Notes: a model not told the origin generated them from the letters alone. A stretch of DNA of 63,326 bases, filler included, from Bonamia ostreae (GCA_040357525.1; 44 parts of 44 records of this genome joined end to end with filler, not necessarily neighbours in it); one strand, 5' to 3'. Shown: positions 20 through 61,735, numbered from the whole stretch's first letter. Made by a program: numbers and translations.

Positions 20-573
20 CTATTTATATTTTCTCTCTTTGTATTGTGGTCTTTTGCCGCCCGAATTAAAATTCCGTTTTCGCTTTGGGCGATAGGTGTC
101 CCCGTGGCCCCAACCGCCTCTCTTCGAATCATAATCAGTTCTATGTTCTTCTCTTACTTGCCCTCCGTGTTTGCCGCGGCCAAATTGCCGGCCCTCCTCA
201 AAACCGGGATCCTGGTCGACTCTGATAGTCTTCCCGTCCAACTTCATGTTGTTCAAGTATTTTAACGCGCTTTTGGTATCCTCGGGCGTGTAGTAACTTT
301 GAGGTTGACAATTAATTACTCGACGAAGCAGAATCCGCAGGCTTTGCCGTTAAAGCGATTTTTGCCTAAAATAACTCTTTTGACACTGGCAATTTTCGAG
401 AAAAGAGCGTAGAGCTGTTCTTCAGTGGTGGTGAAGGAGAGGTTGCCTATGTACAAAGTGCATGACGACTGAAGTCTCTCTACGATCTTGTTCCAGCCCT
501 CTTCGCTGTACAGGTTTTTACGAGACTTAAGGTACGGAGAAAGCGCATTCGGGTTAGAATATAAAAACGACAT
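20..573 (-). CDS. NCBP2: Nuclear cap-binding protein subunit 2 (CBP20), 2 exons
   Basis: Motifs [23 protein letters not shown] and [14 protein letters not shown]. Removing the 23-nt GT-AG intron at 297-319 joins the two ORFs in frame. Confidence 0.96.
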
Positions 574-874
574 CAGAGCTTACAATATTAAGATTTTCAA
601 ATATAATTAGAGATTTTTCGAGCTTAAAAAAATTTTAAGCCATTTTATTAAATGTGAAAGTTAAAATCAGCGCAAAATCAGTTTCCGATTTAATGGCAAA
701 ATCAGCGCAACACAAACTCAATTATATTCTGATTTAAAATGCTAACTTTGAAATTTAGCAAAACCGATTATACCGAGGTTCCCTAGAATTCTGAGCCAGA
801 AAGCTAAAACATAAAAGCCATAAAAAAACCCTAAGGGATCTTACTTCCTTTAAAAAAAAGAAAAAAACAAAAAA

Positions 875-1351
875 ATGTCAACTGCTACAACGAACACAGA
901 ACGCGAAAACGCGGCGGAGACAACAACGTCAACGCCACACGAACCCAAAAAGACGAGCAACAGAGCGTCACTTTATGTCGGTTCCGAATTTTATTTTTAA
1001 GGCGATTTGCCCGAGACAGTGATGGAGCAACGTCTTTTCGATATTTTCAACAACGTCGGGAACGTTTCGTCGATCCGAATTTGCCGCGACTCGGAGACTT
1101 TCCGGTCCTTGGGATACGCTTATGTGAACTATCACTCTGCGATGGACGCGAGCAGAGCGATCGATAACCTCAATTTCCTGAAAATAGACGGGCGCGAAAT
1201 AAGGATAATGTGGGCCAATTCGGATTCGTCGGTGAGGAAATCTGGCGTCGGAAACATCTTTGTCAAGAATCTCGACGACAACATTGACAACAAGATTTTG
1301 TACGACACTTTTTCCGTCTTCGGCACCGTCATGTCGAGCAAAGTCGCGCAT
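875..1351 (+). CDS. PABPC1: Polyadenylate-binding protein, 5' part (RRM1 and start of RRM2)
   Basis: Motifs SLYVG|DL, RSLGYAYVNY and RKSGVGNIFVKNLD. A 21-nt intron at 981-1001 contains an in-frame TAA. Truncated by the contig end. Confidence 0.96.
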
Positions 1352-1451
1352 NNNNNNNNNNNNNNNNNNNNNNNNNNNNNNNNNNNNNNNNNNNNTTAAT
1401 TAATTAANNNNNNNNNNNNNNNNNNNNNNNNNNNNNNNNNNNNNNNNNNNN
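1352..1451. other. Artificial contig linker (N44-TTAATTAATTAA-N44), representative of 43 copies
   Basis: The identical 100-nt spacer, with stops in all six frames, recurs every ~1.43-1.45 kb. Contig length falls from 1351 nt (first) to 1330 nt (last). Confidence 0.99.
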
Positions 1452-2750
1452 TAATTTTTCTGTCACAATCTTCAACAATTTCTAATTTTCAAATTTACAA
1501 AAACCAAAACAAAAGAAAACGGGATTTCTTTAACTGTTCTGAAAACCAAATCTTTCTCGTTTCTATCTAAAATTCGCCACAACTCTTGAAAATCCTAAAG
1601 TTTAAAATTTAACATCAATTCTAATCGCTTCGACGACTTTTTTCGTGTTCTCGAATTCAATGTCGGCCAAATTTGACGTGTCGTTTTCGACTTCGCTGGG
1701 CAAAAACTTGTCAAAATTTTTGTCAAAATTTAGCTTTTTGTCTAATTTTTGCTGTTTCGTATTCGAATTTAGGCTTTCGGCTTTTCTCTTGTTATCGCAA
1801 ATTTTGTCCAAAATTATTTCTTTTTCTTTTAGCGATTTGTCCATTTTCTAATTTTATTTTTTCAAAAACAAATTTTTCGACTGAAAAGAACGAACCGTTT
1901 TTTGTCAACAAAACAACTTTTCTGTCAAACAAATCGCCAAAAACTATTCGGCCTTTCGAAAGCTTTAGTTTAAAAATTGGATTTGATCGTTTTTGGACAA
2001 ATCCGTTTTTAAAATTTAGCCAAAATAGTGAAGCTGATCCGTCTTCGTTGACCGTCAGAGACGTCAAAGACTTTTTCTCGTCGTTTTTTATTTTTGGATT
2101 TTCGGCGTTTTTTAGGATTGCTAAATTTATCGGAAAAGTGCATTGCAGAATGCTGAACGGTTCAGTGCTCCGCGATTCTGCGCTCCATAACATCGCTTCA
2201 TGTTCTTTCATGTGCGATGAACTCGATATGATCAACTTTCCGTCTTCGCTCATTTCCAAACTGCTAATCTTCACATTTAAAAATGCTAAATTTTAACATA
2301 AAAAGCTAAATTTTAATATAAAATTGAATTTAATTTGCAAATTTGAAAAATTTTAATTTGTTTAACTTTGTTTAAATGTCCTTTGAAGACATTGCGCAAA
2401 ATGGCGGAACTGCCATTTAAATCGAAAAGAGCGATTTTCTTGTCGGCGACGGCGAGAAGATTGTTGCCAAAGGCCAAGCGCTCCGGCAAAAAGGCGTTCG
2501 GGGACCAATCGTTAACGATTTTTTTGGTTTCCAGAGAAGCTTCGAAAATTCGACCTTTTCCGTTTGTTGAAATGGCGGAAATAAAGAGTTTATGGTCGCC
2601 GTCAAAAGCGATGTCAGTGGAAACGAAGTCGGATAAAATTTGTTTTTTGGGTAAAATAAGCGATTTTCTGTTCGAGGTTAAGTCGATTATCGAAATGTTT
2701 ATTGATTGGCCCAGAGCAATTAGTTTTAAATGAGTTTTGTCGTTTTCGGT
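1452..2750 (-). CDS. WD40-repeat protein, internal fragment with several introns
   Basis: Splicing a GTT..AG intron at 2269-2366 gives FKGHLNK|ISSLEMSEDGKLIISSSS...LWS, a GH-WD repeat pattern. Other exon boundaries are unresolved. Confidence 0.6.
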
Positions 2751-3097
2751 CTAAAAATCGATTTATTTTTATATTTTTTTGTTCGTTTTTAAATAAACAA
2801 AANNNNNNNNNNNNNNNNNNNNNNNNNNNNNNNNNNNNNNNNNNNNTTAATTAATTAANNNNNNNNNNNNNNNNNNNNNNNNNNNNNNNNNNNNNNNNNN
2901 NNTCAATTGCACTTTTATATTTACTCAAAACTGATTTTTTGTACTTTCCAAATAGCAAAAGCGGCGTCGAAGAATCAAAAAGCAACGGCGTTGTGTTATT
3001 AACATAGATTTTTCTCACAAAAATGTTATTTCAGAACAACAAAATTTCGATCAAACAAGATTTTGAATAAAAATTTACGTAGAAAATTCGATCAAAT

Positions 3098-4253
3098 TTA
3101 ATTGTCGCGCCACAACATGTGCTGCTGATTTTGCACAAGAAAAACGGCAATTTGCTGCAACACAATAACATTCCTCATTACTTTCTTCAAAGCGTAAAAA
3201 TACGCGTTCAGCCCCCACAACAACCTGTACTGCTCAAACGACACGTCTTGTTTAATTATGCTCCACTTTTTCCTCGTGCCCAAAAACTTCTTCACCGCTT
3301 CAAAGTACATATCAAAATTTTCCATTATCTTCTTTTTATGTTAAAGTTTTGTTGGACTAATCGCACAAAATTATCAAAATTATCAAATTATCAAAACATC
3401 ACAAAATTCTCTCGTTTTGTCAAAATCGTCTTCAAACTTTTTCTCCAAACATTTTTTGGGCGTTTTCATGGCTTCGATTATATTCTCCAGCGATTCTTTG
3501 ATACTGTTCTTTCAACATAATTGATTTCACAAAACAGCCATTTTTACAAAAAAAACAAAAATGGTTTCATAGTCCAAACAAATGATCTCATATTGCGCCG
3601 TGTTCTTGATTTCGCAGTCGTTCAGAGCGTGCGCCGAAACAATGACAAAATTGGACAGATTTGCCGTCGCTTCTATTATCTCCTTCAGATTCGCCGGACT
3701 GACGTTTTTGAAGTAGAGCTCCGGCTCGTTCTCCGCTTCTCCTTGCAACTTTCAATTGTTTTTTGAAGTGCAAAAAACCTCCGACATTATTTGATGATTG
3801 CTCTTGAAAGCGTACAATTTGTCGTTCAATGTGCACATCCTCGCGCTGTTGAATTCTGTTTCGGTGTGACAAATTGTAACAATGTTGGATTATGGAAACT
3901 GTCGAGAGAAGGGGGTTCCCAGCTGATGACCAAATCGTTGTCCAGAACGATTTCTTTCACCATTTCGAAGGTTTCTTTGCCCTCGAAATCTTTGCTCTGG
4001 ACGCCGCGGAAAACGGTTTTCTGCTCTTCGAGAATTTGGCAGATCATCGAAAACTCTTCCTCGATTTTGATGAGGATCAAAGAAGCCGCTCTCTTCGCGT
4101 TCGCGATCATCAAAAAGACGATCGACAGCGAAACGCCTCCGATCGTTCTGTTCAGTTAGAAAATAACATTTTGATGACTCTGAAGACGCTCTCGTTGATG
4201 TCGTCGGCCGAGCTGTAATCTGTCAACATTACGCTGCAAGCAATGAATGAGCT
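3098..4253 (-). CDS. Hypothetical multi-exon protein, 3' part (compact eukaryote)
   Basis: Consecutive minus-strand ORF pieces can be linked by short GTT..AG introns such as gttattttctaactgaacag. No family recognised. Confidence 0.4.
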
Positions 4254-4354
4254 NNNNNNNNNNNNNNNNNNNNNNNNNNNNNNNNNNNNNNNNNNNNTTA
4301 ATTAATTAANNNNNNNNNNNNNNNNNNNNNNNNNNNNNNNNNNNNNNNNNNNNG

Positions 4355-4486
4355 TCTTACGGGCTAAACCTCTTATTCACAAGTATTGTGATTTGGATTT
4401 ACGCAATCATGCTCGCGCTCATGGCCGGATTGCTATATTTCAAGCGGGAGATATATTTGAGCAAAGCAGAAAAAACGCAGTGTTAA
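4355..4486 (+). CDS. C-terminal end of a membrane protein
   Basis: Open frame from the contig start: SYGLNLLFTSIVIWIYAIMLALMAGLLYFKREIYLSKAEKTQC*, with a hydrophobic helix. Confidence 0.45.
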   Translation, partial: SYGLNLLFTSIVIWIYAIMLALMAGLLYFKREIYLSKAEKTQC

Positions 4487-4553
4487 ATAAAAATAATGTT
4501 GTCAAACAAAAATCATTCGTCAAATAAAAATAATGTCCCATAAAAATGTAAAA

Positions 4554-4764
4554 GGGGCGATGGCTCAGCGGTTCGGACCAAGTGGGCGCATTCGTGCGGG
4601 CATGGGTTCGAATCTCGGTGCTGTCGTTTCCAAACTGATGTAAAGAAGATTTTATTCGAACTTGTAATTTGACTGAGGTTGCCCCTAGAAACTTCGGACC
4701 TTGAATGTCTGCGCTAGACGATGGACGGTCAGGTCGGGGTCGTGAGTCCCCAAATTGCAAATTA
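4554..4764 (+). mobile_element. tRNA-derived SINE, apparently full-length copy
   Basis: A box TGGCTCAGCGG (4561-4571), B box GGTTCGAATCT (4605-4615) and an A-rich end. Flanking direct repeat AAAAATGTAAAA at 4542-4553 and 4765-4776. The 3' half recurs at 15276-15478. Confidence 0.8.
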
Positions 4765-4820
4765 AAAAATGTAAAATAAAAAATGGAATGTGTATGTTTA
4801 CGTGCCAAGTTGAATTTCTT

Positions 4821-5051
4821 TCATTTCTGTGGCCGATTGAGAGTACTTTTATTTTGAAGAAAAACCCAGCTGTCCTTTTTGTTTTTTTCGTCAAAATAAT
4901 AGCGGTACGAAATTCCGAGCACGAACGGCGAGAATCCAATTGCGAAGATCAACATGTCTCTGCACATGACGATTCCGCGCGTGTAGAATTCCTGGTTGAA
5001 CGTAAATTTTTTAAAATCCAATTGGCTGCGAGGCACGGATCTCATCGTCAA
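4821..5051 (-). CDS. Small single-TM hypothetical protein
   Basis: 76-aa ORF with one hydrophobic segment (MLIFAIGFSPFVLGISY). No family recognised. Confidence 0.4.
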   Translation of the reverse strand: MTMRSVPRSQLDFKKFTFNQEFYTRGIVMCRDMLIFAIGFSPFVLGISYRYYFDEKNKKDSWVFLQNKSTLNRPQK

Positions 5052-6065
5052 GCCCTGTTTGGATCGGAGTTAGTGATTAGAGCTTAAAACATATGTGTTG
5101 TGGATATCGTCTCTTAAGTGGGCTTTCAGAATTTGGGTTCTGACGTTTGGGAAGAAAGGAGTGAGTTTAGGCATTTTCACAGCTTCTGTGAGGTATATGT
5201 AATTTCGTTAATGTTTTAAAATTAGCCAGAAATATCAGAAGACGTTTCACATTAAATTTAAAGGGTTGCAAAAACGTTTTCACACCAGATTATTTTAAAT
5301 TTGATCATTTCACATTTTACATCATTCTTCTTTTATCTTTTGAGAACGGGAGACGGTTTGATATCGAAGATTTTAGTTTTTAGGTTTAATCAATTGGAAA
5401 ATAATTTATTTTACATTAAATTGAAAATATAAAATATTTTTATTCGTCGGTTCATATTTGGTCTAAACTAGCCAAGCTGACGTGGTGTTTGTTATGGAAA
5501 CTCAACATTTCGAAGGATTTGCGCATATCGATATATTCGTTTGTCTCAGAGTATATAAAATATCTTTACATCGAGTTTTCAGTCAATGTTATTTGATTGC
5601 CCGAACCCAAAAGGCTGTATAACTGGTTCAGGGGGTCTTTTGTTGGAATCAATATAAAATTGCTTTTAACAAAAATTGTTTTTCGAATTTTTTATTTTTG
5701 TTAANNNNNNNNNNNNNNNNNNNNNNNNNNNNNNNNNNNNNNNNNNNNTTAATTAATTAANNNNNNNNNNNNNNNNNNNNNNNNNNNNNNNNNNNNNNNN
5801 NNNNCCTGCAAGTTTGTTGAAATCGAGTGATAGAATGCCAAATGTACAAGAACATGAAAAAACTTATATTATGTGAGCGAACGGGTAAGTTCTATATACC
5901 TTTTGGATCTCTGTTGCAAGATGGTCATAATGTAAAAAGTAACAAATAAAATATATTTCCGTGTTTTTCAACCGTTTAAAAGCAATAAAGTATATGGATA
6001 ATGTAAATTGTAGTTTTCATTATACAAAATATAATTTCTTGAATATTTATGATAGGAAGTCTCAC

Positions 6066-7155
6066 CTACACTTGGAGTAAAGTAGACAGGAGTGGTTGAT
6101 GTAGTTAAAGTTGTTCTCGGAGAGGACTGTATTGAAGATGATGGTGAGCTGTTGATGGGGACTTTTAATATCGTACTGGTGTTCATTATGGTTTGTGCTA
6201 CATTACTTTGGGTACTGGTAAATGAAACTGGTTCATTACTGCTGGTGCTGATATCTGAAACTGGTTCATTACTGAAGATGCTGATATATGAAACTGGTTC
6301 ATTACTGTTGTTACTGGTATTTGGAACTGGTTCATTACTGCTGACATTGANNNNNNNNNNNNNNNNNNNNNNNNNNNNNNNNNNNNNNNNNNNNNNNNNN
6401 NNNNNNNNNNNNNNNNNNNNNNNNNNNNNNNNNNNNNNNNNNNNNNNNNNTATCTGAAACTGGTGCATTACTGTTGGTACTGATATCTGAAACTGGTGCA
6501 TTACTACTGGCACTGGTATCTGAAACTGGTTCATTACTGCTGGTGCTAATATCTAAAACTGTTGCATTACTGCTGGTGCTGATATCTGAAACTGGTGCAT
6601 TACTGTTGGTACTGATATCTGAAACTGGTGCATTACTGCTGGTATTGGTATCTGAAACTGGTTCATTACTGTTGGTACTGGTATCTGAAACTGGTGTATT
6701 ACTCTTGGTACTGATATCTGAAACTGGTTCATAACTGCTGACACTGGTATCTGAAACTGGTGCATTACTGTTGGTACTGATATCTGAAACTAGTTCATTA
6801 CGGCTGGTGCTGATATCTGAAACTGGTTCATTACTGCTGGCACTGGTATCTGAAACTGGTTCATTATTGCTGGTGCTGATATCTAAAAGTGGTGCATTAC
6901 TGCTGGTGCTGATATATGATACTGGTTTATTACTGTTGTTACTGGTATTTGGAACTGGTTCATTACTGCTGGTGCTGATATCAAAATCTGGTGCATTACT
7001 ACTGGTGCTGATATCTAAAACTGGTTCATCATTGCTGGTGCTGATATCTAAAACTGGTGCATTACTGCTGGTGCTGATATCTGAAACTGGTTCATTATTG
7101 TTGTTACTGGTATTTGGAACTGGTGCACTGCTTTGTAGACTGTTGAGTAATACTG
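6066..7155 (-). CDS. Mucin-like Ser/Thr-rich exon built from a 33-bp tandem repeat (animal-type contig)
   Basis: A stop-free frame encodes (ISTSSNEPVSD)n on both sides of an internal N gap and ends at a canonical AG|GTGAG donor (6065). Confidence 0.65.
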
Positions 7156-8960: not shown

Positions 8961-10342
8961 CTATCCAGAACACTATTTCTACTCTCAACCATTGCACGCA
9001 TTGCATATGTCCTCGAATGAAGAAGCATTTCTATACCTAAGCATATTTATTGAACAGATTACAATTTAATGTTACGTCTTACTTAAGTTATTGCTAGCAT
9101 GCAGTTATTAAGAAATCATGAATTACAAAAATTCAAATTTTATTTCAAAATTCAATATTGGGGTTCCTTGCCTGTCACGATCAATGGAATAAATTAGTCC
9201 GTTTTCAAAAACTGTATCTCGGGTGCTGACGGAGTACTTCTGCTTTAAAGAATTTTGTAATAACCTTCCATATTCCCTCAATTTTTAGAATTTAGATAAC
9301 AGGCAGTCTTGCATTCCCTACAGATGCCTACATGCAATACCCCTGAAATTCCACCCGCATTCCCTTCGAATACAGTGCATTTGGCAAATTCTTAGACCAA
9401 TATTTACATTGCAGGTAAAATTTCCAGACAGAAGTTCTCTCTCTACACTTTCCTTGCTTCATTGAAATATCCTACATCAGTCATTTTTTTCAAAATATCT
9501 GGTAGTAGTCTTCTTTATTCTTCATATTCCTTGGGAAAATATGTAACAAATGTTGGCATGTTAGGATAGCTTGGAGGCGACNNNNNNNNNNGTCTCAGTA
9601 CAACATTGAAGTTCATGCCTGAATTCCAATAACATAGGTCTACGATGTATCCGTTGAAAAACCTGTTTACATTCATGAACGTTATATTTTGTTGTGTAAT
9701 GACGTTAGTCAATTGTTGACGGAATTGGTGTAACATTTGTTACGTCACATTAATAACAACTCGTGACGCTGTCATTCAAAATCACACCACTTACGACGCA
9801 AGGGTCTTGATAGCAGGACCTGAGGAATGGCTTCCATGTTTAACTCGAATTACGTATCCCCATTTGGGAGGTATTCGATGCAAAAACGGGAAAACTTTTA
9901 GACAATATATCCTCAGCAAACAGCATACCACCCGAATTCCTGCTTCCGCCGGTTTTGTCAGCATGCTAAAACTTTTTAGAAAAATCCGTTGTGTGTCCTT
10001 GGGGAACGTGGAAACAGCCTCACGCAACCATTACAAACACTATAATGATTCGATATCNNNNNNNNNNNNNNNNNNNNNNNNNNNNNNNNNNNNNNNNNNN
10101 NTTAATTAATTAANNNNNNNNNNNNNNNNNNNNNNNNNNNNNNNNNNNNNNNNNNNNATAAAGAATATCAAAAAAGAGAGTTTGTTTGCGACAATCAAAT
10201 GCACTTTTTCTACAATAAAATTTGCCATTTTCCCCAAAAAATTTTGAGTTTTTTCATTACGATTTTGATTTGTCATTGGAGTTTTTAAGTTGCTAATCCA
10301 ATTTTATTTTTATGAAAGAGTTTGAGCCAATTTGTGGATTTA

Positions 10343-11270
10343 TCACATGCACTGGTCCTGTTCTCTTGGCCTCGGAGCACATCTTATGATATCGTCAGTG
10401 TGAACAATCATTTGAACTGCTTCGTGCGCTTTGTCTAGAATCGAATCTTTCAGGAGAAACGGCTCGATCACATTCAGTTCCGACATGTCACCTATTCTAC
10501 CCTTTTCGATGTCCAACCCGGCCGTCGTGTCGTTCTTTTTTGTAAATTGTCTCGAAAACTCGATAATGAGCAGAACGCAAATTAGCGACGATTTCGGCTC
10601 GGTCTAAACCCGCGTTTCCAGCGACAACGGCCACCAATTCTTTCAAAGCGCCCGCAAACGATTCGACTGCCAATTGCTTTAAACCGAAAAATCAAATTTA
10701 AGTCGAATTTCGAAAAGTTATTGTGCTCAAAAAACTTCTTTTCCGCCAATGCCAGGAGCAAGTCTTTCGATATCTTTGGCCATTCTGATTTCGGAGCAGC
10801 CCCCGCCGAAAATAGTCCTTCCGTCCTTAAAATTTAGCAAATCGAACTCTTGCCACCAGCGACACAACACAAAGAGCATCGTGAATGGCCCTTTCGACTT
10901 CGTCCAACAAATCTGTTTTATTATTCGTTGGCCATTGAAAAATTTTGCATCAAAGTTTTAAATTTAACGTGAACTGGCTCCTCTTAAAACGATCGTGCAC
11001 GCTTTCCCCTGTTCGACTCCGGAGAAATGGATCATTTTTTCGTCTCCGACCATTATTTCTTCTATCAATTTGCAATGTCCCAATTTGGTCTTTTCCGGGT
11101 TGTCGAATGTCGAAGCTATTTCAGCTCCCAAAGAGAGCGCCTTTTAATTTAAATTGGTTCAAACGAGTCTTTCGATTCCTTCGAAGTCAGCGTGTTCAAT
11201 GGCCATGACGTTTTTGTCGGCGAATAGTTGTTCAGGATAATTGTAAATTAGTTGGCGATTCACAAAACAG
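10343..11270 (-). CDS. CCT2: Chaperonin CCT subunit beta, 3' part (6 exons)
   Basis: Motifs [37 protein letters not shown] and [12 protein letters not shown]. Introns at 11141-11164, 10913-10968, 10826-10847, 10677-10735 and 10535-10559 all start GTT and restore the frame. Missed by the ORF track. Confidence 0.95.
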
Positions 11271-11281
11271 CTAAATTTGGC

Positions 11282-11500
11282 AAAATTTTTTGATTTAAAC
11301 TTGCGAAAAATTGCCAATTCTCGAATTTTTGATAAAAAATTTTTGATTTAAAATTGCGAAAAAATTGCCAATTCTCGAATTTTTGATAAAAATTTTTTGA
11401 TTTAAAATTGCGAAAAAATTGCCAATTCTCGAATTTTTGATAAAAATTTTTTATTTAAAATTGCGAAAAAATTGCCAATTCTCGAATTTTTGATAGAAAA
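11282..11500. repeat. ~54-bp minisatellite (4 copies) inside a CCT2 intron
   Basis: TTGCCAATTC recurs at 11311, 11365, 11419 and 11472. Confidence 0.9.
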
Positions 11501-11607
11501 ACTTTATNNNNNNNNNNNNNNNNNNNNNNNNNNNNNNNNNNNNNNNNNNNNTTAATTAATTAANNNNNNNNNNNNNNNNNNNNNNNNNNNNNNNNNNNNN
11601 NNNNNNN

Positions 11608-11770
11608 ACTTTTTTTGATCGATTATTTCAAAATAAAATTTTTTTGACCAATTTTTTCGACTTTTTATTTAGACTAAAATTTTTTTGACCAACTTTTTTT
11701 GATCGATTATTTCAAAATAAAATTTTTTTGACCAACTTTTTTGATCGATTATTTCTAAATAAAATTTTTT
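11608..11770. repeat. ~41-43-bp AT-rich minisatellite, probably intronic
   Basis: The unit aactttttttgatcgattatttcaaaataaaattttttgacc is repeated about 4 times with variation. Confidence 0.8.
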
Positions 11771-39059: not shown

Positions 39060-40235
39060 CGCTAAAATTCCGCCCCGAAATTCCTCCGGCATTTTTGATA
39101 GTTTGACATTAGTAATTTCATTAGTCCAAAACGTAAAACCGTCTGCCGTCTCAACTTTCTTCCAAAACAGCGACTTATCTTTTTTCCTTTCCTCCCTCTT
39201 CACCATCCAATGCAACCCGATTTTTTGGTGCACCAACAATTCAGTTTTTACCAGTTCTCCGGGCTCCATGGGCTCCAGATCTTCGAAAGAAGTGGCATTT
39301 TCGAAAATCTCCCTAAAATCGCCGCTAAGTTCTTCTGTATTTTTGCCGTTCAAATCGTCTTCAAAAGTCTTTTGTCTGTTTTCAGAGCTTTTCTCTTCGT
39401 TTTTGGTGTTTTTGTGTTCGATTAAAGCTTCTTCGAACATTTCGTCTTCCAACATTTCCAATGTTTGGACATTGAACAAAGGGTGTGTTTTATAAAAATG
39501 GAGGTCGATCTCCATTTTCTTCATCCGACTTTTAATGCGTTAAAAAAACTGGTTCAGATAAGAACAGATTTTTTTGATGCTAAAAATCGGTCCGATCAGA
39601 TAAACCTTCATCTGCGCCGCAAACTGATTTTCAGGCGGATCTTCGATTTCTTCGTCAAAATCGCAGACGATTCCTTCCGCTTTGAAAAAGTTGGCGTTTT
39701 TGAGAATCTCCGTTAAAGCGTCTCTGGTGTTGACATCGCAGTAGCCCATCACGTTTTCGCCGGAGAAATTTTGCTGGGGACAAACCTTTATCGAAAGCGG
39801 GTCGATTTTGTTGTTAATATCTTTGATCAGAACGACTTTTGTGCCAACGGAGACTTTTCCAAAATCGGAAATTTGGCCAAAGATGTAACCTTTGAAGACG
39901 CCATAGAGCGTTAGGGGGTTTGCGGGCGGTTTCAAGTGTGGTCGATTTTGTAACTGCCCAAAATTGGCGTTTATTCGGGGAATCGGTTTGCTTCTGAGAA
40001 ATAAATTTGGTCTAGCTTTCTTGATGAAATCGTTATGGTTGATTTGGTTTTGGTGCAAATATCGTTTTTGGGGAAATGTGTAGTGGTTTGGTTGGTTCTC
40101 AAAGTTTCTTGTTGCGTTCATTGCGTTTTTTGGCCGTGTTGGCGGATGGACAAAATTTCGTTTTTTCGAATCGATATTTCGTCTGAAATCGATGTTGTTC
40201 TCGAGCTTTAAACTGTTATTTTTAAAATGGTCCAT
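39060..40235 (-). CDS. HLTF: HLTF/Rad5-like HIRAN-SNF2 helicase, 5' part
   Basis: HIRAN-like VVLIKDINNKIDPLSIKV...MGYC, then KTELLVHQKIGLHWMVKRE...FW...NEITN...FRGGILA. A 21-nt intron lies at 39529-39549. Confidence 0.85.
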
Positions 40236-49710: not shown

Positions 49711-50443
49711 TCAAATATCATTCATTCGAACGAAAGTTTTGGTCACGTCCAATAACTGTTTCAATTCCAAATACCTTTTCGCTTCATTTTCCCAATCGCC
49801 ACAAACCGTCTTTTGGAAACCAGTTAAAGTATCCATCTCTTCAACTGCTCGAGCGAAATCGTTTTTTCTGACAAAATAACAGGTCCGACTGAGTGTTTTC
49901 GCTGGTCCGTTTCCTTCGACGTAAGCACTTTCGTTTTTTGACAATCGCGAAATGATGTACGCGAGGACGTGTCTGAAAGGGTTATTGGAGTTTTTGGCGA
50001 GAATGGCTTGTCTCATTGACTTTTCGAATGTTTTGTGAAAACCTTTTCGACGTCGAAAAGAAACCAGTTTTTTAGAGATTGTTTTGACATAACATTTTCT
50101 TTTAAGTCGTTGTTGTAAAAAGTGAAAAGTTTTTTAAGTTGTTCGTCTTTTTCAATGTTTTTTTGCAGTTCTTCGAAAATGTCTTTGTAAGGTTTTTCGT
50201 TTTCGATTGAAGTTATTATGTTGTCGATTTGGTTGCAAATCTTAAATTTTGATGAAAACTTTTAAAGATCTTTTTTTTGAAATCAGAAAATCGTTAATTC
50301 TCGAATTTTCGGAATGCAAAGAACGGATTTCGTTTTCCATTTTTTCCAAAACTTTATTTTTTTCTTTAACTTTCAAATTTGTCGTTCTTATAAATTCTCT
50401 AAATTTTTCTTCGTATTCTTTTATCTTTTTTTCGGTCAAATTT
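49711..50443 (-). CDS. IMMT: MICOS subunit Mic60/mitofilin, 3' part
   Basis: A coiled coil is followed by TLSRTCYFVRKNDFARAVEEMDTLTGFQKTVCGDWENEAKRYLELKQ, the mitofilin C-terminal signature. Confidence 0.8.
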
Positions 50444-52297: not shown

Positions 52298-52830
52298 TCA
52301 AAACTTTGCAAGCACCGCTAAAACAATAAAAATCGGTACTAGTGCCAAGGAAAGGTACAAGTTGAAGCTGTTGGACACATTGAATGATTTGTTTATGCTT
52401 TTTTTGAAGTAAAGGTCGTACAAGATAGGCAAAACTACCGACGATATTGCGAGGCAAGCGTACAAAATAATAAATAGATACTTCAAAATTTTGCTGAAAC
52501 ATAAGAGCAATCCCTTTATAATGGCCAATGCTACCAATGCAAAAATCATGATGCTCATGAGAGCCAACAAAATCTTGTTTCCTTCCTCAAACTAAATATT
52601 GTTTTATAAACTTTGGGGCAAGCTCCAATGCAAAAAGGACTGTTTTTGCCGTAAGAAGAAATTCCTGACAAGTCGAACTTTGCTGTTGACGTGGAATATC
52701 CTCGAATTCCAAGGTGAAAAGAATTGTTGTTGGCGACAGCGACGAGCCAGTTAGGATTGAAGATGAGAACGAGAAGGATGAGCGTAGCGCCCGTGGTCAA
52801 TACAAAATTAATTATTGAGAATAAAATCAT
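52298..52830 (-). CDS. Four-TM claudin/amastin-like membrane protein
   Basis: A 20-nt intron at 52592-52611 joins TM1-PNW...LGI...C-x3-C loop to three further hydrophobic helices. Confidence 0.6.
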
Positions 52831-53273: not shown

Positions 53274-53407
53274 CTATTTTTATTAATTTCTTAACTTTAT
53301 AAATTAANNNNNNNNNNNNNNNNNNNNNNNNNNNNNNNNNNNNNNNNNNNNTTAATTAATTAANNNNNNNNNNNNNNNNNNNNNNNNNNNNNNNNNNNNN
53401 NNNNNNN

Positions 53408-54561
53408 AAAATTGTCTCAGCATACTTTCATAATCATTATTCTCTGTTTCGACTATTTCGCAGTCAACAAAAACTATTTTTAAACCCAAATTTCTGTAAA
53501 TAACAAGAATGGCGTTTTTTCCAATATTTTGATTGATAAGTTTGTTTTTTGTTTGAACAATTTCATAAAAGTGCTCCCACAAATTTTTTAGTACAATATC
53601 TAAAACAATTCCACTAAAAATTGAATTAATTGAAAGTATCTCCAGTAATGGATATCCTTTCACCTTTTTTTCTAAATATTGCTGTTTTGTTTTTGATGCT
53701 GCTAATGTGTATTTTGGATGTCTTTCAGTAACTTAGAATTTTAACAATTGTTTGAATATTAATTGGAATAGCCATTGTATTTTAACTGGGAACAGCCACT
53801 AACTTAGAACAATTAAATTAGTATTAAAAAAGGCATTTTTATAAAAATTGTTTCGGTCCGGTATCAATAAACAAATTTAAAACCGTAAAATGCCTGCATT
53901 TTTTTGCTATATTCAACAAATTCTTTTTCTACTGGATTTGCTGATATCATTGCCTCGTCAAGGTTATCTGATACATCAATGTCTCCCGTTGTGTCTGTTA
54001 ATTTATCTATTTCTCTTGCAGATGTTAGACTCTTTTGTTCTTTTTTAATTATTTTGTCATCTAGTGTTTCTGTTTTAGTATCTTCATCTGATTTTTCGTA
54101 TTCGTCAATTTTTTTCAGATATTTGTTCCTTTTTTTACACATTCTGTGTCGCAAATATTCAGATTTCTGTTCTGTTTTAGGTTCTTTTTGCACAATTTCG
54201 CGTCTTTTTATATTTTTAGGTTTGGCACCTTCGTTTCCAAAGTCTTTATACGAAGTATCGTAAGATGACAACAACGGAAGTTCATCTTCTTTGTTTTTAT
54301 CAATTGTTTCTGATGAACTACTTGAAACTAATTCACTCGAATCTACTGGATTAGCAGCATAGAAATCATTCTCAGTGAAATCTTTTTCTTGAATATCATT
54401 ATCGGAACAATCTCTGAAATCTACAAATTCTGACAAAAATTGAGCATCTTTATTATTTGTATCTCAGAACGAAAACCTTTGCTGTCATCAGAATTAGTAT
54501 TTTCTGTGTCTTCAAAAGTAAAACTTTTCGACTTATTTCTTTTTATATTTTTTAGGGGCAT
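53408..54561 (-). CDS. Hypothetical acidic/charged protein, 5' exons
   Basis: MPLKNIKR... joins the 190-codon ORF through the intron gttttcgttctgagatacaaataataaag. No family recognised. Confidence 0.5.
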
Positions 54562-55104
54562 TTTAATTATTATTTTAATTTTTATAAAAATTTTATATAA
54601 TAAGGTCAAATTTGTAAAATGAAAAATTATTTCTTTCGTTTAGTAATTCTTCAAATGAATTTATGATAAGAAATTAACTAAATTTAGAATTACATTTTAA
54701 TAGTAAGAATATAACACAAGAACAAATTAAAGTTCACACNNNNNNNNNNNNNNNNNNNNNNNNNNNNNNNNNNNNNNNNNNNNTTAATTAATTAANNNNN
54801 NNNNNNNNNNNNNNNNNNNNNNNNNNNNNNNNNNNNNNNTGTTTAACATGAAAAAAGTTGCACGGAACTTCGGTGTAATTTGTAAACGCTATACCACTGA
54901 TGAACGTTGTATCATTAGAAGGAGACTGCGTTGTGTGAAGAAGTGATATCATTATGGTTAGAATAAGCATTTTCAGAAACAGTGCCTTACAATGCAGATC
55001 CTTAATTGTTTGTAATAGGAAACATCTGAAAGATGAGTTCTTGTACTAATATATCATGAAACTACTTATAACTATCGAGCTTCTGTTCATTATGATAATT
55101 TCAG

Positions 55105-55806
55105 ATCCCTAAGAAACCTTTGATACTTGATATTAAGTCGGATTCCGTGAAGTTAACATGGCCATGCAACCACAGGGATGTTGAGTGTTTTGAAATCAGA
55201 TATAGATCCCCATCAGGCCTAGAAAAATATAAGACGCATCGCACGAATGGTAACGAAAATATTACAACAGTCACTGGTCTGAAAGGAAGCACTGCCTATG
55301 TTTTCCAAGTGAGATGTGTCTGGGAAGAAAAGGAAGGAGATTATAGCGAACAAAGCAACGAAGTGTCTACAGGAGATTCACTAGCTTCAAGACTTTTAGC
55401 TGATGCTGTTCAATTAAATGAAGAAAAACCCTCAAAATATCAACTTTGTCCTCGGATATTGACAAGGAATGAAGAGAAAAAAATAAAACAAGTTCAATTA
55501 GGTAAACATTTGAAACGTTAATCAAAAATCAAATGCATAGTTAAAATATGTTTAAGGAATTTGAAAACATCAACATTTATAGCACATGAATACTTGTAAA
55601 CATGCTAGTATATCAAACTACCTACAGGGTCGGAAATGGGTATATCTGTCAAAGAAAAGACGATCATGCTTATTGGCGCCACAGGATCTGGAAAAAGTAC
55701 CCTTGTTGACGGAATGATAAATTACGTTACAGGAGTAAATTTTGATGACCCTTACAGATTCTCATTATTGCAGCTGGAGAAAGAGGAACAAAAGACAAAT
55801 AATCAG
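55105..55806 (+). CDS. FN3 + septin/AIG1-like P-loop GTPase, two exons (55105-55501, 55628-55806)
   Basis: FN3 (SVKLTW...VTGLKGSTAYVFQVR) spliced in phase to KTIMLIGATGSGKSTLVDGMINY. Confidence 0.85.
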
Positions 55807-56271
55807 GTTAGTTTGCGGTGTTCATAACATCCGTCGTTACTAGACACCAGCATAAAGTTACTCTAATGCAAAGGCTACATATAATAATTTGATGGAACAA
55901 AATTTGAAATAGATTCAAATTATGAAACATATATCCATCAGATATTAAATGGGCAAAAATGTATCTTGCCACTACTTTCTAAATGGCTTTGTGCAGAATA
56001 TCCTAAATATAGATGTAATTCAATTGAAATTCGCATTATAGATACAAATATTATTAAAAACTCACTGCATCACTTTCAATTTCAATCCGGTTTCTATACA
56101 GTCAGTTTTTGGAGCCAGCTATGTGGAAAAAAATTAATTGAGGAAGGCAACTGACAAATAAGTCTATGGTANNNNNNNNNNNNNNNNNNNNNNNNNNNNN
56201 NNNNNNNNNNNNNNNTTAATTAATTAANNNNNNNNNNNNNNNNNNNNNNNNNNNNNNNNNNNNNNNNNNNN

Positions 56272-56390
56272 CTTGCACAACATTTTTTGCGACATTTCTT
56301 TGCCATTTAATCAAATTTGGCAAATCTTGCACAACATTTTTTGCGACATTTCTTTGCCATTTAATCAAATTTTGGTAAAATTTGCACTAA
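56272..56390. repeat. ~54-bp tandem duplication, probably intronic
   Basis: cttgcacaacattttttgcgacatttctttgccatttaatcaaattt occurs twice in tandem. Confidence 0.8.
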
Positions 56391-56401
56391 GTTTATTGCG
56401 A

Positions 56402-57372
56402 TTATAGAAACAAGCAAATTTTGGCGAATTTTTGATCATTAAAGATATCGCTAGTTTTCATTCCAGAAGGGGTTAGCTTTGAAGTTGGCAACAAGAACGA
56501 AACGAGTTTAAACACTTGTTGCACTGCATAACCAGGGATGATTTTTGGAGCGATTTTGATCATCGGCGAAATAAAAACGATCCCATCAAAATTGTGTTTT
56601 TTGGCCAAAATGTTAATCGCAACCGCTCCGCCCATCGATACAGACAACAAGTACTTTTTACAATCGCGGTAGTCTTCTGAGATTTTGTTGTACACTTTTT
56701 CGAAATAGTCGGTATATTTATCGAATTTGGGTATGAAGCCGTGGAGACCATCGCTGAGACCGTGGCCAAAACCGTCCATTGCGTAAACGGTGTAGTTGTG
56801 ACTACAAAAACTTTTGGAGACGACACTGTTGGCAAAAGAAACGGAGCTGGCGTATCCGTGTATATAGAATAGAACTGCTTTTGGGCATTTGTTAAGTTTT
56901 TTGATCTCGAATTTCTTTTAATTTTAAAATTAATTTTTTTTTATTTTTCGGCGCTTTTTCAAATTTTTCAATTTTATTAAAAAACGCGTATTTTTGTAAT
57001 TTTCAAAAATTGCAAAAATTATCAGTAAAGATAAATGAATAACGGCAATTTATAAATTTCGTAAACCTTTTTATTTGAGTTTTCTAACATTGTCGTAACC
57101 TCAACGCCGCCCAATTTCGACATTTCCTGTAACTAAAATGTTAACGTTGTAACCGGGTCCACAAAATCACCCTCCACGTGCTCCCATTGTTGCAAATAAA
57201 ATGTCAGATCGGAATCCAACTCGATTCGATGTTGGATCAAACTGATGTTTGGGGCGCCGAACTGCATCGAAGGAATCATTGGATTATAAATCGAATGTCC
57301 ATATTTCCTAAATTGAGGATGGTCATCATACACTTTCCTTCTTTGCTCACCTGTATTAACTTTCAAAGGCAT
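56402..57372 (-). CDS. Alpha/beta-hydrolase, monoacylglycerol lipase/lysophospholipase-like, 5' part
   Basis: Motifs PKAVLFYIHGY, YAMDGFGHGLSDGLHGFI, SVSMGGAVA and GIVFISPM. The first exon begins at 57372. Some junctions are unresolved. Confidence 0.85.
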
Positions 57373-59585
57373 TTTAAAATAATATAATTCGGTTTGTTTT
57401 GGGCAGTTTAACAGATTTGTAATAATTAAAACGGACGAACTTTGAAAAACTACAGATTTTGTAAAAACAAATTTGGAGAAAAGGAAATTGTGGTTTTAAC
57501 TGGGAAACATGTATATTTAATTTGTTTAAAAAAATCCTCTCATAAGAATGGAATCGTCACGCTTTTTTTTTTAATTTTGGTCCTTCGTCAACCGATTTTT
57601 TAANNNNNNNNNNNNNNNNNNNNNNNNNNNNNNNNNNNNNNNNNNNNTTAATTAATTAANNNNNNNNNNNNNNNNNNNNNNNNNNNNNNNNNNNNNNNNN
57701 NNNGACGATATAAACACTTCAGTGGGATGCAGCCGTACCGATTTATTATGCAAGATACACGGAGTTCAGTCTACTGAGTGTATTCAATATTATGATATTA
57801 GGTGTTTCATCCAAAAGCACCACAGGTTGATGAACACATATGTCTTCATTGCTAATGGATTGTCAACGTTAATGATATAATGGGTACATGTCAAGATAAA
57901 GGACAGACACCTAAGATCATTAGTACGAGAACTAAGCATTTATCTACGATGGTTAAGAAACTTGAATATAATATATCCGCATGTTATGCATAAAAAGCTC
58001 CCAGTGCAAATATAAAAAGTAGAATATAAAAACATTCAGTAATTGTAGTCAATAAATCATAAACTTACCAGAATCCATGGTATCGTGTAAGCCAAAACAC
58101 ATCGACGGTTGTTTAAGGTAATTTATTCTATGTTTTTGTTATCAATTTGAATTACATTCGAGAGAACACATGAATAATGAAAATCTAGATACAAATACGT
58201 CTTTGTGTCGATTGATAAAGGTGAATCTTTTCAACTTTGTACTCTGTTATCAGTGAGATACAGCCGTACTGATTTATTATGCAGGATACACGGAGGTCAG
58301 TCTACTGAGTGTATTCAAATAAATGTGTTGTGGATTTTTATACAGGTATCAAGGGGGACTTTGAAGGGTGTTTGGATTGAGATGTCACGTACATGACAAA
58401 ACATATAAATGTATTTGTAACACTGAAGATTTGGAAAACTCTTAAAACGTTTTTCAATTGTTTTGCACCGTGTTATCGTTTGTTTTCTCTCGGTTAGCAC
58501 AGCCGAGAGAAGAGAAAAAAACCCGATAACACGGCCCAGAATATTATATTTACCATAGTCACGCAATGTCAATCAGCAATCATAATATGATTCCGCTACG
58601 CCTCATACTAATTCTGGGTGTGACTGGTATAGGGATATGCACCGAGTCGTTACATTTCATCACCGGAAGTACCTGTTTACTCTATTCCACTCTGTGTTTA
58701 AATATGGCTAAATACGTCTTTTCGAGTTTTATGGCAGTTTTTAAAGTATCATCTTGGTATTCTCTTTCTAATAGGGAATAATTATGTGTCATTTCAAATC
58801 ATTATTGCCGATTTAACGGTCGAATTAGCGCAGCCGGTAATACGAATGTTTATGACCATTAAATCAGAATCGGTGGTTGGAAATAACAAACAAGATAGTT
58901 ATAATTCCCAGTTTAATACCATTTTGCATTATACTTGATATTTGCGCCTTTTTTGTCAAGTTTTAATAATATACAGTTCTTTCTTGATAGTGAGGGAGAT
59001 ATGAAGATTTAGTCACTTAAGTAAAATCATATTTNNNNNNNNNNNNNNNNNNNNNNNNNNNNNNNNNNNNNNNNNNNNTTAATTAATTAANNNNNNNNNN
59101 NNNNNNNNNNNNNNNNNNNNNNNNNNNNNNNNNNTAGATGGTATGAGTCCAAGATGTATAATTGTGACAATCCAAATGTAATGACTACAGTATTAGAACC
59201 AACATGCTTATGATGAAGTTCATTGCAATTATGATTTAATTCAGTTCATCACTGATGGATTTGAATTATAACGTTTAGTTTTTTAGTAAGAATTTTGTGG
59301 TTTGTTAACACTCAGGGATTTTTTGGGATTGAGACTCAGTTGTATGTCTAATATCCGAAGATTACGTCGTCTCCTTGTTTGTAATTAGATATACTTTTGC
59401 ATTCGTCAGACGAAAAGGTACAATAAGGTACAGTTGATATGTAAATGATGTCATTGAATAGTTTGAGGAGTTAAAGGTCTATATAATAAATTCTGGTAAA
59501 AAATGTTCTCATCAAGCAAGAAATAATAAATGTTGCATGATTGAATATATCGTTAAATACAGAAGATTGCTTTTTTACATTTTAG

Positions 59586-60211
59586 GACCAGTACGTGTTT
59601 TTGTATCATGCGCTACATGTGTACTTCAAGCAGAAAGGGAAACTAATCCAAAAAGAAGAGTTTTGCAGGCTGTTTGGAGGAATGGAGACACAGGAAATAC
59701 GAAAATCCCTTACAGATGAATTCAACGTATGACAATACTGATATATTTTCTCACAACAAAATAAGTATATGTGACTATATATGTAGGTGTACTCTGTGAA
59801 ATCCAATATGAGGACTAAAGAAGTATTATGTAAGTTGTATCATAATTGCCTGAACGCTATCAATGATGATGCAATGTACTATCATAATGCTATTTCATAT
59901 TCAACTAGATTCTATAATGAGCCTTTATATGGATTTAACTATTTTGCAGGAGCTGAAAAGTTTAAAACCTAATTATATTGACAAGGATTTCAAAACTGGA
60001 AAGGCGCATCCAAAACTTAATATGACCAAATCGGTTTTACCAGGTATTTATAAGAAAAAGATAAATTATTCCTTGAATAGATACAAGAGCAAAATAATAG
60101 TGTACTTCCTTACGTATTGTATTTCTTTATTATGCAGTTGAGCAATACCTGGTGTATTTAACTTCCAATGTTCGGGGCCGAGACACCTACTACAATGCAG
60201 TGACTGTTTCG
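59586..60211 (+). CDS. Receptor-type protein tyrosine phosphatase, D1-D2 junction, three exons (59586-59726, 59950-60043, 60138-60211)
   Basis: DQYVFLYHAL (Q-loop helix), then ...LNMTKSVLP|VEQYLVYLTS...TYYNAV. Splice phases are compatible. Confidence 0.85.
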
Positions 60212-60565
60212 GTATGTATCGATTATAGGTCATTAAAAATATTACATAAGAATGATGAACATTCCGTGGTGAGGACCCATATAAACAGCATTCGTGATTT
60301 CTTCTGTAACAGTTAGAACAGTTGACGTCAACATGCAATGGATCAATGTTAATTCAGCGCAAAATGAAAAGATATATCGCCACACGGGTGGAATCGTATT
60401 TTTCAGTGCGGATGCCCTTGAAAAGATAGGTTTGGAATTCTAATTTCAGGGTTGATTTGCAATCCNNNNNNNNNNNNNNNNNNNNNNNNNNNNNNNNNNN
60501 NNNNNNNNNTTAATTAATTAANNNNNNNNNNNNNNNNNNNNNNNNNNNNNNNNNNNNNNNNNNNN

Positions 60566-61166
60566 CTTTTTTCCATTTCGAGTTCACTGAATTCGCCCGA
60601 CCTTCGAAACCGCTCAAATTCAGCCATTTTTTTCTCGTTGTATTGAGATGTTTTGTGGTCAAGTTCCTTTAAGTAAATTATTTCGAACCTCCTTTTTTAC
60701 GTCTGAAAATTGTTTATATTCTTCAGACAGCTTTTTCATCGTGCTCTTGCTCAAATTCTCGCTCACAAAATAACCGTAGCGGCTCGTTTTCTTAAACTTC
60801 AATTTGTTTTCTTTTTGAAATTTGGCTTTTTCTTTTGATTTTTTAAATTATCAAAATTTTGTTTTTCTTTACATAGAAAAATTTAAAATTTTGGTCTCGA
60901 AAACCAAGTACTTTGATGAACTCATCCAAAAATTCCGCGTAATTATTGCTTTTTTTGTAATCTTCAATTTTGCTTTTGAACATTTCCATGTCCTCTTTAA
61001 ACTGGTGATCCAATTCTGGAGTGACATTTGTTATATCCTTTTTTAAACGAGGATTTAACGGCTTTTTGGGCCGTAGATTGTCTACAAGTTTGGGCAGTCC
61101 TTTCCGTTTTTTGACCACTCTGAACCTTTGCGTTGAGCAAAAAAGTCTCTTTGAAAAGGAAATCAT
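60566..61166 (-). CDS. Hypothetical protein with mitochondrial-presequence-like N-terminus, 5' part
   Basis: MISFSKRLFCSTQRFRVV is basic and free of acidic residues. Confidence 0.45.
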
Positions 61167-61277
61167 AAATTCGTTATTTAGTTTAAGATTTTGAATTATA
61201 ATAAGTTCGAAATCATAGAATTATAAAAATTTTTGAATAAAATGGCGATTTGATTGCATTTTCAATGTGTGATTTAA

Positions 61278-61735
61278 CTACATTTGCGAAGGATTGTATC
61301 GTGCGAGACTGTCATTCGCCATCAGCGCCAAAATTTCTATTTCCGCCTTTCCAAAAATTTCGGGATCACTTGATCCTTCCTGAATCGCCTTTTCGATCTC
61401 GTTTACTACTCTGTCGCTTAGATTTACCTTCAAAAAGCAAATCGTCTCGGTTAAAAATAGCGTTTAACAAATCTCATTTTGTAAATGTGGTCAAAAATAA
61501 CTTGAAACTCTGATTCAATCGAAACAAATTTGTAAAAAATGGCGATCGATATTTCTTTTCGGCCATATTCATTGCTAGCTTTGGTAGATTTTTTGTATTG
61601 AACGACAGATTCATAAAATTCGAGATTCTCCACCGAATATTCTTGCAACAAATGTTGTCTGAACTTTTGTTTTTCTGTTTTGTCGCTTAATATTTTTTTC
61701 AGTTTCTCGATCGGGTTAAGTTTAGACGCTCTCAA
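61278..61735 (-). CDS. RGS-domain protein, 3' part
   Basis: FRQHLLQEYSVENLEFY...KFVSIESEFQ|VNLS...IFGKAEIEILALMANDSLARY, with an intron at 61428-61501. Confidence 0.88.

Follow-up and report, generated by a model that had tools for sequence, protein, structure and literature searches.

How does a nuclear genome mark its introns when most of them are hardly longer than 20 nucleotides (nt)? The question is raised by the 63,326-base stretch of DNA analysed here (hereafter the window; about 31% GC), whose genes are interrupted by GT-AG introns with an unusual GTT donor. A first-pass annotation had listed 15 introns of 19-25 nt and a longer class, with GTT donors, AAG acceptors and a run of A where a polypyrimidine tract is expected, and had ascribed this grammar to a spliceosome with altered U1 or U6 pairing and reduced dependence on U2AF. 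To our knowledge, nearly all eukaryotes have a purine at intron position +3, where it stacks into the helices formed with U1 and, later, with U6. A genome in which about nine in ten donors carry U at +3 and the introns are too short for a tract therefore lends itself to testing how little sequence suffices for a spliceosome, and also whether small nuclear RNAs (snRNAs) co-evolve with their targets. The introns are real: they combine a GTT donor with A-rich 3′ parts and fall into two length classes with common ends. The grammar described is the normal grammar of this genome, and we put at roughly 0.85 the probability that they are genuine spliceosomal introns of the GT-AG type, in a eukaryote with a compact and AT-rich nuclear genome.

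Introns in RNA contigs and protein profiles

Contigs from two public runs that hold part of the window, X1 (its kind guessed as RNA) and X2 (RNA-seq, labelled mollusc metagenome), were placed on one N-free segment of 1.35 kb (10158-11507). On its minus strand, this segment encodes the C-terminal part of a CCT chaperonin, and it covers three of the 15 listed introns; within it, the uncovered part 11148-11507 and the relative depths were uninformative. The gene has five introns here:

10535-10559, minus strand: 25-nt intron, GTT..AAG; X2 RNA, Cpn60_TCP1 profile 436/437
10677-10735, minus strand: 59-nt intron, GTT..AAG; X1 and X2 joint, profile 397/398
10826-10847, minus strand: 22-nt intron, GTT..AAG; profile 367/368, parser; X1 contig unspliced
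10913-10968, minus strand: 56-nt intron, GTT..CAG; X1 joint, profile 345, split codon, 347
11141-11164, minus strand: 24-nt intron, GTT..AAG; X1 loose end, parser

The X2 contig (420 letters) has no letter that differs from the window except for the skipped stretches, and bears a poly(A) tail at 10321. The interval 10535-10559 is exactly absent from this polyadenylated contig, and its flanks do not allow the deletion to be shifted by even one base. A joint over 10677-10735 was present in X1 and X2 and one over 10913-10968 in X1; both intervals end in CT..AC on the plus strand with no ambiguity ('both' = 0), which on the coding strand corresponds to GTT..AAG and GTT..CAG, respectively. The longer class proposed earlier was thus recovered as RNA joints of 59 and 56 nt that share the ends of the short class. 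Furthermore, a 10-letter loose end of an X1 contig at 11140 matches the exon that follows 11164, indicating that 11141-11164 is spliced as well. RNA hence supports removal of four of the five introns, three exactly and one by the loose end. Among the short introns predicted in this segment, 10535-10559 was therefore confirmed to the base and 11141-11164 by the loose end; the third, 10826-10847, is taken up below.

To assess the junctions independently of RNA, single exons were scanned against Pfam and the profile coordinates were compared across each junction. Five successive CCT exons matched Cpn60_TCP1 at 291-344, 347-365, 368-397, 398-434 and 438-488. When the unaligned residues at the exon ends are counted, the junctions fall at 345|346|347, 367/368, 397/398 and 436/437, so that continuity of the profile covers four CCT junctions, including that of 10826-10847; the fifth intron, 11141-11164, lies outside the profile test. 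Across 297-319, the RRM_1 profile runs from 1 to 44 in the first exon and from 47 to 70 in the second, whose residue 2 corresponds to position 47, with a split codon and one residue in between. The UQ_con profile spans 14807-14830 in the same manner, with 1-37 in the first exon and 39-115, starting at residue 2, in the second (37|38|39). Intron removal therefore restores a conserved protein without a gap in RRM_1, Cpn60_TCP1 and UQ_con. The ferritin and RGS genes gave a compatible, looser reading. Under a 23-nt alternative in the RGS gene, the profile matches 2-67 and 65-112 overlap, which favours a 92-nt intron at 61417-61508. PDB matches of the 26-residue ferritin exon (E about 1.3) were weakly informative, and the weak ferritin matches of the two exons around 13429-13449 were consistent to within about one residue.

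Two tandem repeat arrays occur close to the CCT exons, one at 11282-11505 (54-nt unit, 4.2 copies, 94% matches) and one at 11610-11770 (42-nt unit, 3.8 copies). The 54-nt array is situated directly upstream of the exons, and the Pfam match of the CCT gene begins only at profile position 291 of 490; the array therefore probably lies within a long CCT intron, unless the gene is truncated here.

The intron set of the window

Every one of the 15 intervals listed by the first-pass annotation runs from GT to AG on the frame-carrying strand, at lengths of 19-25 nt, and its tallies of donors (GTT 12, GTA 3) and acceptors (AAG 9, TAG 5, CAG 1) were exact. The window was also searched with an exon-chaining parser that scores exons by self-trained codon usage, admits every GT..AG interval between 15 and 150 nt as an intron for a constant penalty, and works on N-free segments of both strands. 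The window carries a regular mask every ~1,450 bases (first at 1352-1451), made up of 44 N, the 12 letters TTAATTAATTAA and another 44 N, which splits every gene longer than about 1.35 kb. The first version of the parser, informed by GT/AG and codon usage only, predicted 36 introns, 28 of them with GTT, and was right on two of the five CCT introns. The second version additionally weighed intron length, as a prior, and how AT-rich an intron is inside; it remained blind to positions +3 and -3. It returned 48 introns (GTT in 37, AAG in 25), comprising all five CCT introns and 11 of the 15 listed ones. An unfiltered list of frame-joining GT..AG pairs (3389 candidates in 244 groups) was rejected as too noisy for use.

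A curated set of 35 introns was derived from the 35 second-version introns in genes scoring at least 25. Three were dropped as false, two lying past the stop of a ribosomal P2 gene and one joining phage-like open reading frames (ORFs), and three were added (14807-14830, 61417-61508 and 52592-52611). Of the 15 introns listed earlier, 11 were found again by the parser, 14807-14830 is confirmed by Pfam, 52592-52611 is flanked by open frames, and 11891-11913 and 27868-27891 are candidates from their sequence. The introns outside the CCT segment are as follows:

297-319, minus strand: 23-nt intron, GTA..AAG, in a cap-binding protein 20-like RRM gene (20-573); parser, RRM_1
981-1001, plus strand: 21-nt intron, GTT..AAG, in a poly(A)-binding-protein-like gene (875-1351+); parser
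11891-11913, plus strand: candidate 23-nt intron, GTT..TAG, in a K/E-rich low-complexity frame; sequence, missed by the parser
13429-13449, plus strand: 21-nt intron, GTT..AAG, in a ferritin-like gene (13350-13936); parser; exon 2 from Ferritin position 21
13610-13667, plus strand: 58-nt intron, GTT..TAG, in the ferritin-like gene; parser (both versions)
13758-13779, plus strand: 22-nt intron, GTT..TAG, in the ferritin-like gene; parser (both versions)
14807-14830, plus strand: 24-nt intron, GTT..AAG, in a ubiquitin-conjugating E2 gene (from 14681); UQ_con
24206-24224, plus strand: 19-nt intron, GTT..AAG, after a Ribosomal_S6 exon (23939-24205); second parser version only
24337-24356, plus strand: 20-nt intron, GTA..CAG, in the Ribosomal_S6 gene; parser (both versions)
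27868-27891, plus strand: candidate 24-nt intron, GTT..TAG, adding only a terminal exon of ~7 codons; sequence
34270-34291, minus strand: 22-nt intron, GTA..TAG, in a CH/filamin-repeat gene (33298-34638); parser; CH and Filamin in the flanking exons
34364-34406, minus strand: 43-nt intron, GTT..CAG, in the CH/filamin-repeat gene; parser (both versions)
39529-39549, minus strand: 21-nt intron, GTT..AAG, in a HIRAN gene (39060-40235); parser; joins 228 and 156 open codons
52592-52611, minus strand: 20-nt intron, GTT..TAG, joining hydrophobic open frames of 88 and 97 codons
61417-61508, minus strand: 92-nt intron, GTT..AAG, in the RGS gene; first parser version and RGS profile
1482-1504, 1595-1613, 1848-1869, 2269-2366, 2751-2798, minus strand: predicted introns in two genes, all GTT; parser
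3509-3535, 3749-3778, 3856-3899, 4148-4167, minus strand: predicted introns in the same gene pair (1482-4167), all GTT; second parser version, most of the nine also in the first
50020-50042, 50241-50259, minus strand: predicted introns in a Mitofilin gene, GTT; parser, Pfam on the flanking exons
54448-54476, 56826-56842, 56915-57043, 57127-57153 (hydrolase gene), minus strand: predicted introns, all GTT; parser, Pfam on the flanking exons
60667-60688, 60832-60904, minus strand: predicted introns, GTT; parser, Pfam on the flanking exons

The ends of 981-1001 cannot slide and still keep GT..AG, and its retention leads to an in-frame TAA. Around 13610-13667, the Ferritin profile extends to about 69-70 before the intron and continues from 79 after it (about 76 if counted from the first residue of the exon). 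At 24206-24224, the Ribosomal_S6 domain stops at the exon end, and the first parser version preferred another model. For 52592-52611, the parser chose a weak model on the plus strand instead; the flanking frames showed no Pfam match.

Splice signals and intron architecture

The donors of the curated set have T at +3 in 32 of the 35 introns and A in the other three, which account for all purines at this position. T is found at +4 in 20/35 and G at +5 in 3/35. The information over +3 to +6 amounts to 2.35 bits, of which +3 alone contributes 1.52. Outside the GT, the donors match MAG|GTRAGT at a mean of 2.2 of seven positions and hence have little complementarity to standard U1. As a background, T follows 0.378 of all GT in the window; even against a deliberately high null of 0.43, the 37 GTT donors among the 48 predicted introns are highly significant (binomial p = 1.6e-6). 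The GTT donor rule is real and strong.

The acceptor side is less distinctive. Position -3 is occupied by A in 20, T in 8, C in 7 and G in none of the curated introns; C is likewise absent from -4 (0/35), and -4 as well as -8 to -10 are A-rich. With A preceding 0.375 of all AG in the window, AAG is in modest excess both among the predicted (25/48) and the curated introns (20/35). The pattern of a polypyrimidine tract and a YAG acceptor was not found in the introns of the window. The run of A reported earlier was reproduced, AAA occurring within the last 12 nt of 27/35 curated introns, compared with 13/35 for TTT. The short introns are polarized, with 105 T and 69 A in their 5′ halves and 115 A and 73 T in their 3′ halves, and across the curated set the AT content is 77% in introns and 60% in exons. 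The main length class spans 17-30 nt with a median of 22 (25/36 are at most 30 nt long), and a second class of about 43-130 nt has the same ends. Lengths divisible by three are not avoided (10/35), and retention brings a stop inside the intron in 21/32. In the 25 short introns, a sample that is small, neither a yUnAy branch point (7/25 vs. 9.3 ± 2.3 in shuffles) nor T.AC (8/25 vs. 5.7 ± 2.1) stood out from shuffled sequence.

To gauge how far these signals discriminate, we collected 421 GT..AG pairs of 17-30 nt from 12.3 kb of predicted exons as decoys. T at +3 was found in 35% of the decoys and in 88% of the 25 real short introns, and an inner AT content of at least 0.7 in 14% and 92%, respectively.

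Several points weigh against the reading of these intervals as genuine introns of a compact, AT-rich genome. The RNA test is limited to the one segment of 1.35 kb, and there 10826-10847 was seen only unspliced, one 79-letter X1 contig (10797-10875) crossing it. Most of the 35 curated introns rest on our own parser, which was checked only on the CCT gene and which made errors: it placed false introns past the stop of P2 and within a phage-like ORF, and its model of the RGS gene was wrong. Three introns were dropped and three added by judgement. The scoring of the second parser version itself accounts for part of the AT-rich interior of the real introns, two of the 15 listed introns (11891-11913 and 27868-27891) are candidates from their sequence, and the sample is a single window of 63 kb. 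Lastly, the donor 'GTa' given in the text of Hadjez et al. (2026, PMC13644364) for Dicyema japonicum and myxozoans, and the 0.5 bits given in that of Irimia and Roy (2008, PMC2483917) for D. acuticephalum, conflict with the donors of the window; either the window stems from another species, or its donors are at odds with logos derived from annotation. As for the unspliced X1 contig, it could represent intron retention, pre-mRNA or DNA, the kind of X1 being a guess.

The word depth of this contig (10797-10875) was below that of its neighbours.

Recognition of the introns

The cis-signals fit a recognition system that is either changed or relaxed. At the 5′ splice site, G-T-T (about 90% of introns have T at +3) precedes weakly T-rich sequence, with almost none of the RAGT that pairs with standard U1; at the 3′ end, AG comes after A-rich sequence, with G excluded at -3 and C at -4 and without a pyrimidine tract. 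Being a short island of ~77% AT among exons of ~60% AT, rich in T in its 5′ half and in A in its 3′ half, the intron may be recognised as a whole, by intron definition. The A-rich part probably also holds the branch adenosine, only a few bases from the AG, which would leave no room for tract binding of the U2AF2 type.

We see about an even chance that the snRNAs are standard and that pairing is relaxed, GU, protein contacts and a nearby 3′ site being sufficient in a tiny AT-rich intron. U at +3 would then have to be favoured in another way, for example by a contact with U6 or Prp8 or by avoidance of cryptic sites. In the portion of the bioRxiv preprint drawn on here (10.1101/2022.06.08.495308), U1 has stayed standard in most of the lineages whose donors are atypical, and myxozoans with similar micro-introns are described in the text of PMC13644364 as retaining a canonical U2 branch-point region and both U2AF1 and U2AF2. 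Moreover, GTT together with AT-richness discards about 95% of the exonic decoys. When GTT, an AT content of at least 0.7 and the absence of G at -3 are combined, however, 19 decoys still pass alongside 20 real introns, implying that more information is needed than we have found. It also counts against relaxed pairing that we know of no mechanism by which U would be preferred at +3.

Less likely, and in our view doubtful, is a co-evolved spliceosome in which the 5′ end of U1 and/or the ACAGAGA region of U6 would pair with GUU(U), as in Entamoeba, with U2AF2 or SF1 lost or altered. The donors are almost uncomplementary to standard U1, and T is far more frequent at +3 (91%) than in the 5′ half overall (47%), so that something specific should read +3. 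There is also a precedent: the GUUUGU donors of Entamoeba are matched by a U1 in which ACAAAC replaces ACUUAC, and Mastigamoeba provides a second case, according to the part of the preprint by Roy and Bowser (2022, 10.1101/2022.06.08.495308) on which we rely. The same part states that yeasts, Giardia, Thecamonas and Mamiellales have atypical donors and nevertheless a standard U1, and may therefore be read as a precedent for co-evolution of U1 and equally for its failure. In the window, positions +4 to +6 are only weakly T-rich and thus offer little to pair with beyond +3. The combination put forward by the first-pass annotation, a change in U1 or U6 together with reduced U2AF dependence, may still be called plausible. 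We entertain only tentatively the wider proposition that, in a micro-intron lineage that appears to be an animal, the donor moved from GUR to GUU genome-wide and that U1 or U6 carries a matching change, or that recognition became independent of U1 pairing beyond GU. An Rfam scan of the window gave no match at the gathering threshold and none at E ≤ 1, and hence no snRNA, and no genes for U2AF, SF1 or U1 proteins were seen among the window ORFs scanned against Pfam.

It is improbable that GTT and AAG merely mirror an AT-rich genome with no selected signal. Composition goes some way towards explaining the acceptor, A being the base that most often precedes AG in the window and AAG (20/35 vs. 0.375 expected) only modestly enriched. 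The AAG 'rule' is thus weak, and mainly a matter of AT-richness or A-rich context; its share follows largely from base composition because the usual pyrimidine preference at -3 is absent. What composition leaves unaccounted for at this end is the exclusion of G from -3 and of C from -4 (each 0/35). For the donor it is rejected, since GTT in 32/35 contrasts with a T share of 0.38 behind all GT of the window and of 0.35 at +3 of the exonic decoys. A mini-hairpin that joins the splice sites through pairing between the T-rich start and the A-rich end of the intron (GUUUU...AAAAG), suggested by the complementary composition of the consensus ends, is highly improbable and was rejected: pairing stays at the level of swapped ends (85/150 pairs vs. 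81.1 ± 5.4 with ends exchanged among introns, hence no intron-specific covariation) and folding energy at that of shuffles (mean minimum free energy -0.48 vs. -0.45 kcal/mol), a value of -2 or lower being reached by 1/25.

Comparison with known micro-introns

The closest counterparts are found among animals. In the texts consulted, introns of Dicyema are very short and uniform, measuring 26.2 ± 1.9 nt in D. acuticephalum (Aruga 2007, PMC2222250), with a median of 27 nt in Dicyema sp. (Zverkov 2019, PMC6543705) and an average of 38 bp for D. japonicum (Lu 2019, PMC6736024). In the text of Irimia and Roy (2008, PMC2483917), the 5′ boundary of dicyemid introns ranks as the weakest known (0.5 bits over +3 to +6 in D. 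acuticephalum), and a branch-point signature is lacking; none stood out in the small sample of the window. Like the window, dicyemids have intron-rich genes with GT-AG introns mostly below 30 nt, weak signals, an A-stretch rather than a pyrimidine tract before AG, and long interspersed nuclear elements (LINEs) in the genome. They differ in intron length, the median of the window being 22, and in the donor, 'GTa' with 0.5 bits in the cited text as opposed to GTT with 2.35 bits. Because the X2 contig is identical to the window, the organism should occur in a mollusc-derived RNA sample; taken together with the tiny introns, this would make a small mollusc parasite or symbiont, such as a dicyemid mesozoan, the likeliest source, at somewhat better than even odds.

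The text of Hadjez et al. (2026, PMC13644364) describes introns below 30 bp in myxobolids (median 22-27) and D. japonicum, in which only 'GTa' is left of the 5′ signal and only 'AG' of the 3′ signal, with two to three weakly conserved A's before the AG and a pyrimidine tract that is absent or very short. Myxobolids thus resemble the window in intron length, in their AT-rich genome and in the weak A-stretch upstream of AG, but they differ in the 'GTa' donor and in their hosts, which are fish and annelids instead of molluscs; the window showed no cnidarian marker. Measured against this ultra-short class of animals, the window has a median below 30 nt in multi-intron genes, but T (32) instead of A (3) at +3. 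As far as the text of these sources extends, micro-introns, weak signals and the A-stretch are already described, while T at +3 is not, the published wording being A. Likewise, no statement of a GTT donor rule in animals was found in the text of the dicyemid and Intoshia intron literature, the figures and supplements of which may show T at +3.

Among the sources in the portions considered, Entamoeba is the one lineage found with U at +3 as a rule. It shares with the window U at +3, and often at +4, in nearly all introns, but is intron-poor and, in the preprint text, has a strict motif with G at +5, constrained 3′ structures and introns that are not ultra-short. In the window only +3 is strongly fixed, G at +5 occurs in 3/35 and nothing close to a universal GUUUGU is seen. 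Mitofilin and a mitochondrial-type S6, both encoded in the window, presumably do not fit Entamoeba either. The micro-introns of ciliates (Paramecium, Stentor) and of the Bigelowiella natans nucleomorph resemble those of the window in their length of 15-35 nt, their AT-richness and their minimal signals, according to the passages cited (PMC2483917, PMC13644364, PMC2222250). They differ in their donors, those of Paramecium and the Bigelowiella nucleomorph being 'largely restricted to GT(A)' in the wording of PMC2483917, whereas the window combines GTT donors with the standard code and LINE elements.

If a matching change in U1 or U6 proved true, it would be the first core snRNA-target co-evolution outside Archamoebae and the first known from an animal. 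On the practical side, default minimum intron sizes and GTRAGT/YAG models in aligners and gene finders lead to mis-annotation of such genomes, which may also lie behind the published 'GTa' logos of related genomes.

Other features of the window

The long frames of the window stop at TAA or TGA in the standard code, and Pfam scans of ORFs and exons revealed eukaryotic housekeeping and signalling genes. Besides the cap-binding protein 20-like and poly(A)-binding-protein-like RRM genes and the C-terminal part of the CCT chaperonin, they include ferritin, ubiquitin E2, mitochondrial-type ribosomal protein S6, a CH-domain/filamin-repeat protein, a HIRAN protein, Mitofilin, an alpha/beta hydrolase, an RGS protein, an FN3 exon beside a P-loop exon and a non-long-terminal-repeat (non-LTR) retrotransposon. 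A tRNA scan of the window gave no hit. Homologues of the filamin-like exon, sought among longer proteins only, were not found at E ≤ 0.001, and a metagenome scan with the E2 exon yielded three loci of 34-57% identity with no close relative among them. Apart from the regular mask, there are N runs of 100 (6351-6450), 10 (9582-9591) and 10 (31240-31249), which look like scaffold gaps.

Between eukaryotic genes, a block of intron-less ORFs with phage affinities extends over 15958-19867, flanked by a CCCH zinc-finger-like ORF (15476-15857, recognised from its translation) and by a LINE at 20305. Its PHROG matches comprise a primase (phrog_19458, E 1.9e-18), phrog_1499 and phrog_13450, in addition to the N-terminus of an AAA_15/SMC_N ATPase, and the best tblastn identity to phage records is 25-31%. 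The block could be a horizontal transfer, a fragment of an endosymbiont or prophage, or part of a chimeric scaffold; its left junction lies under the mask. The element that follows, at 20305-21650 and beyond, is a non-LTR retrotransposon whose ORF1 contains an RRM (Pfam) and CCHC (cysteine/histidine) knuckles read from the translation, followed by ORF2 with an apurinic/apyrimidinic (AP) endonuclease domain.

An acidic ribosomal protein P2-like gene without intron is located at 23488-23820 on the plus strand; its product has a tail of about 10 residues past a GMDLFD-type ending, which we take to be the usual end of P2. At 55178-55827 (plus strand), an FN3 exon is followed by a P-loop nucleoside triphosphatase exon (AAA_29-type N-terminus), an unusual pair with uncertain introns between them. 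Finally, a long open frame on the minus strand at 5968-7155 consists of 20.5 copies of a 33-nt repeat, whose 11 residues are largely Ser, Thr, Asn and Pro, and its predicted product looks like a mucin-type or surface protein.

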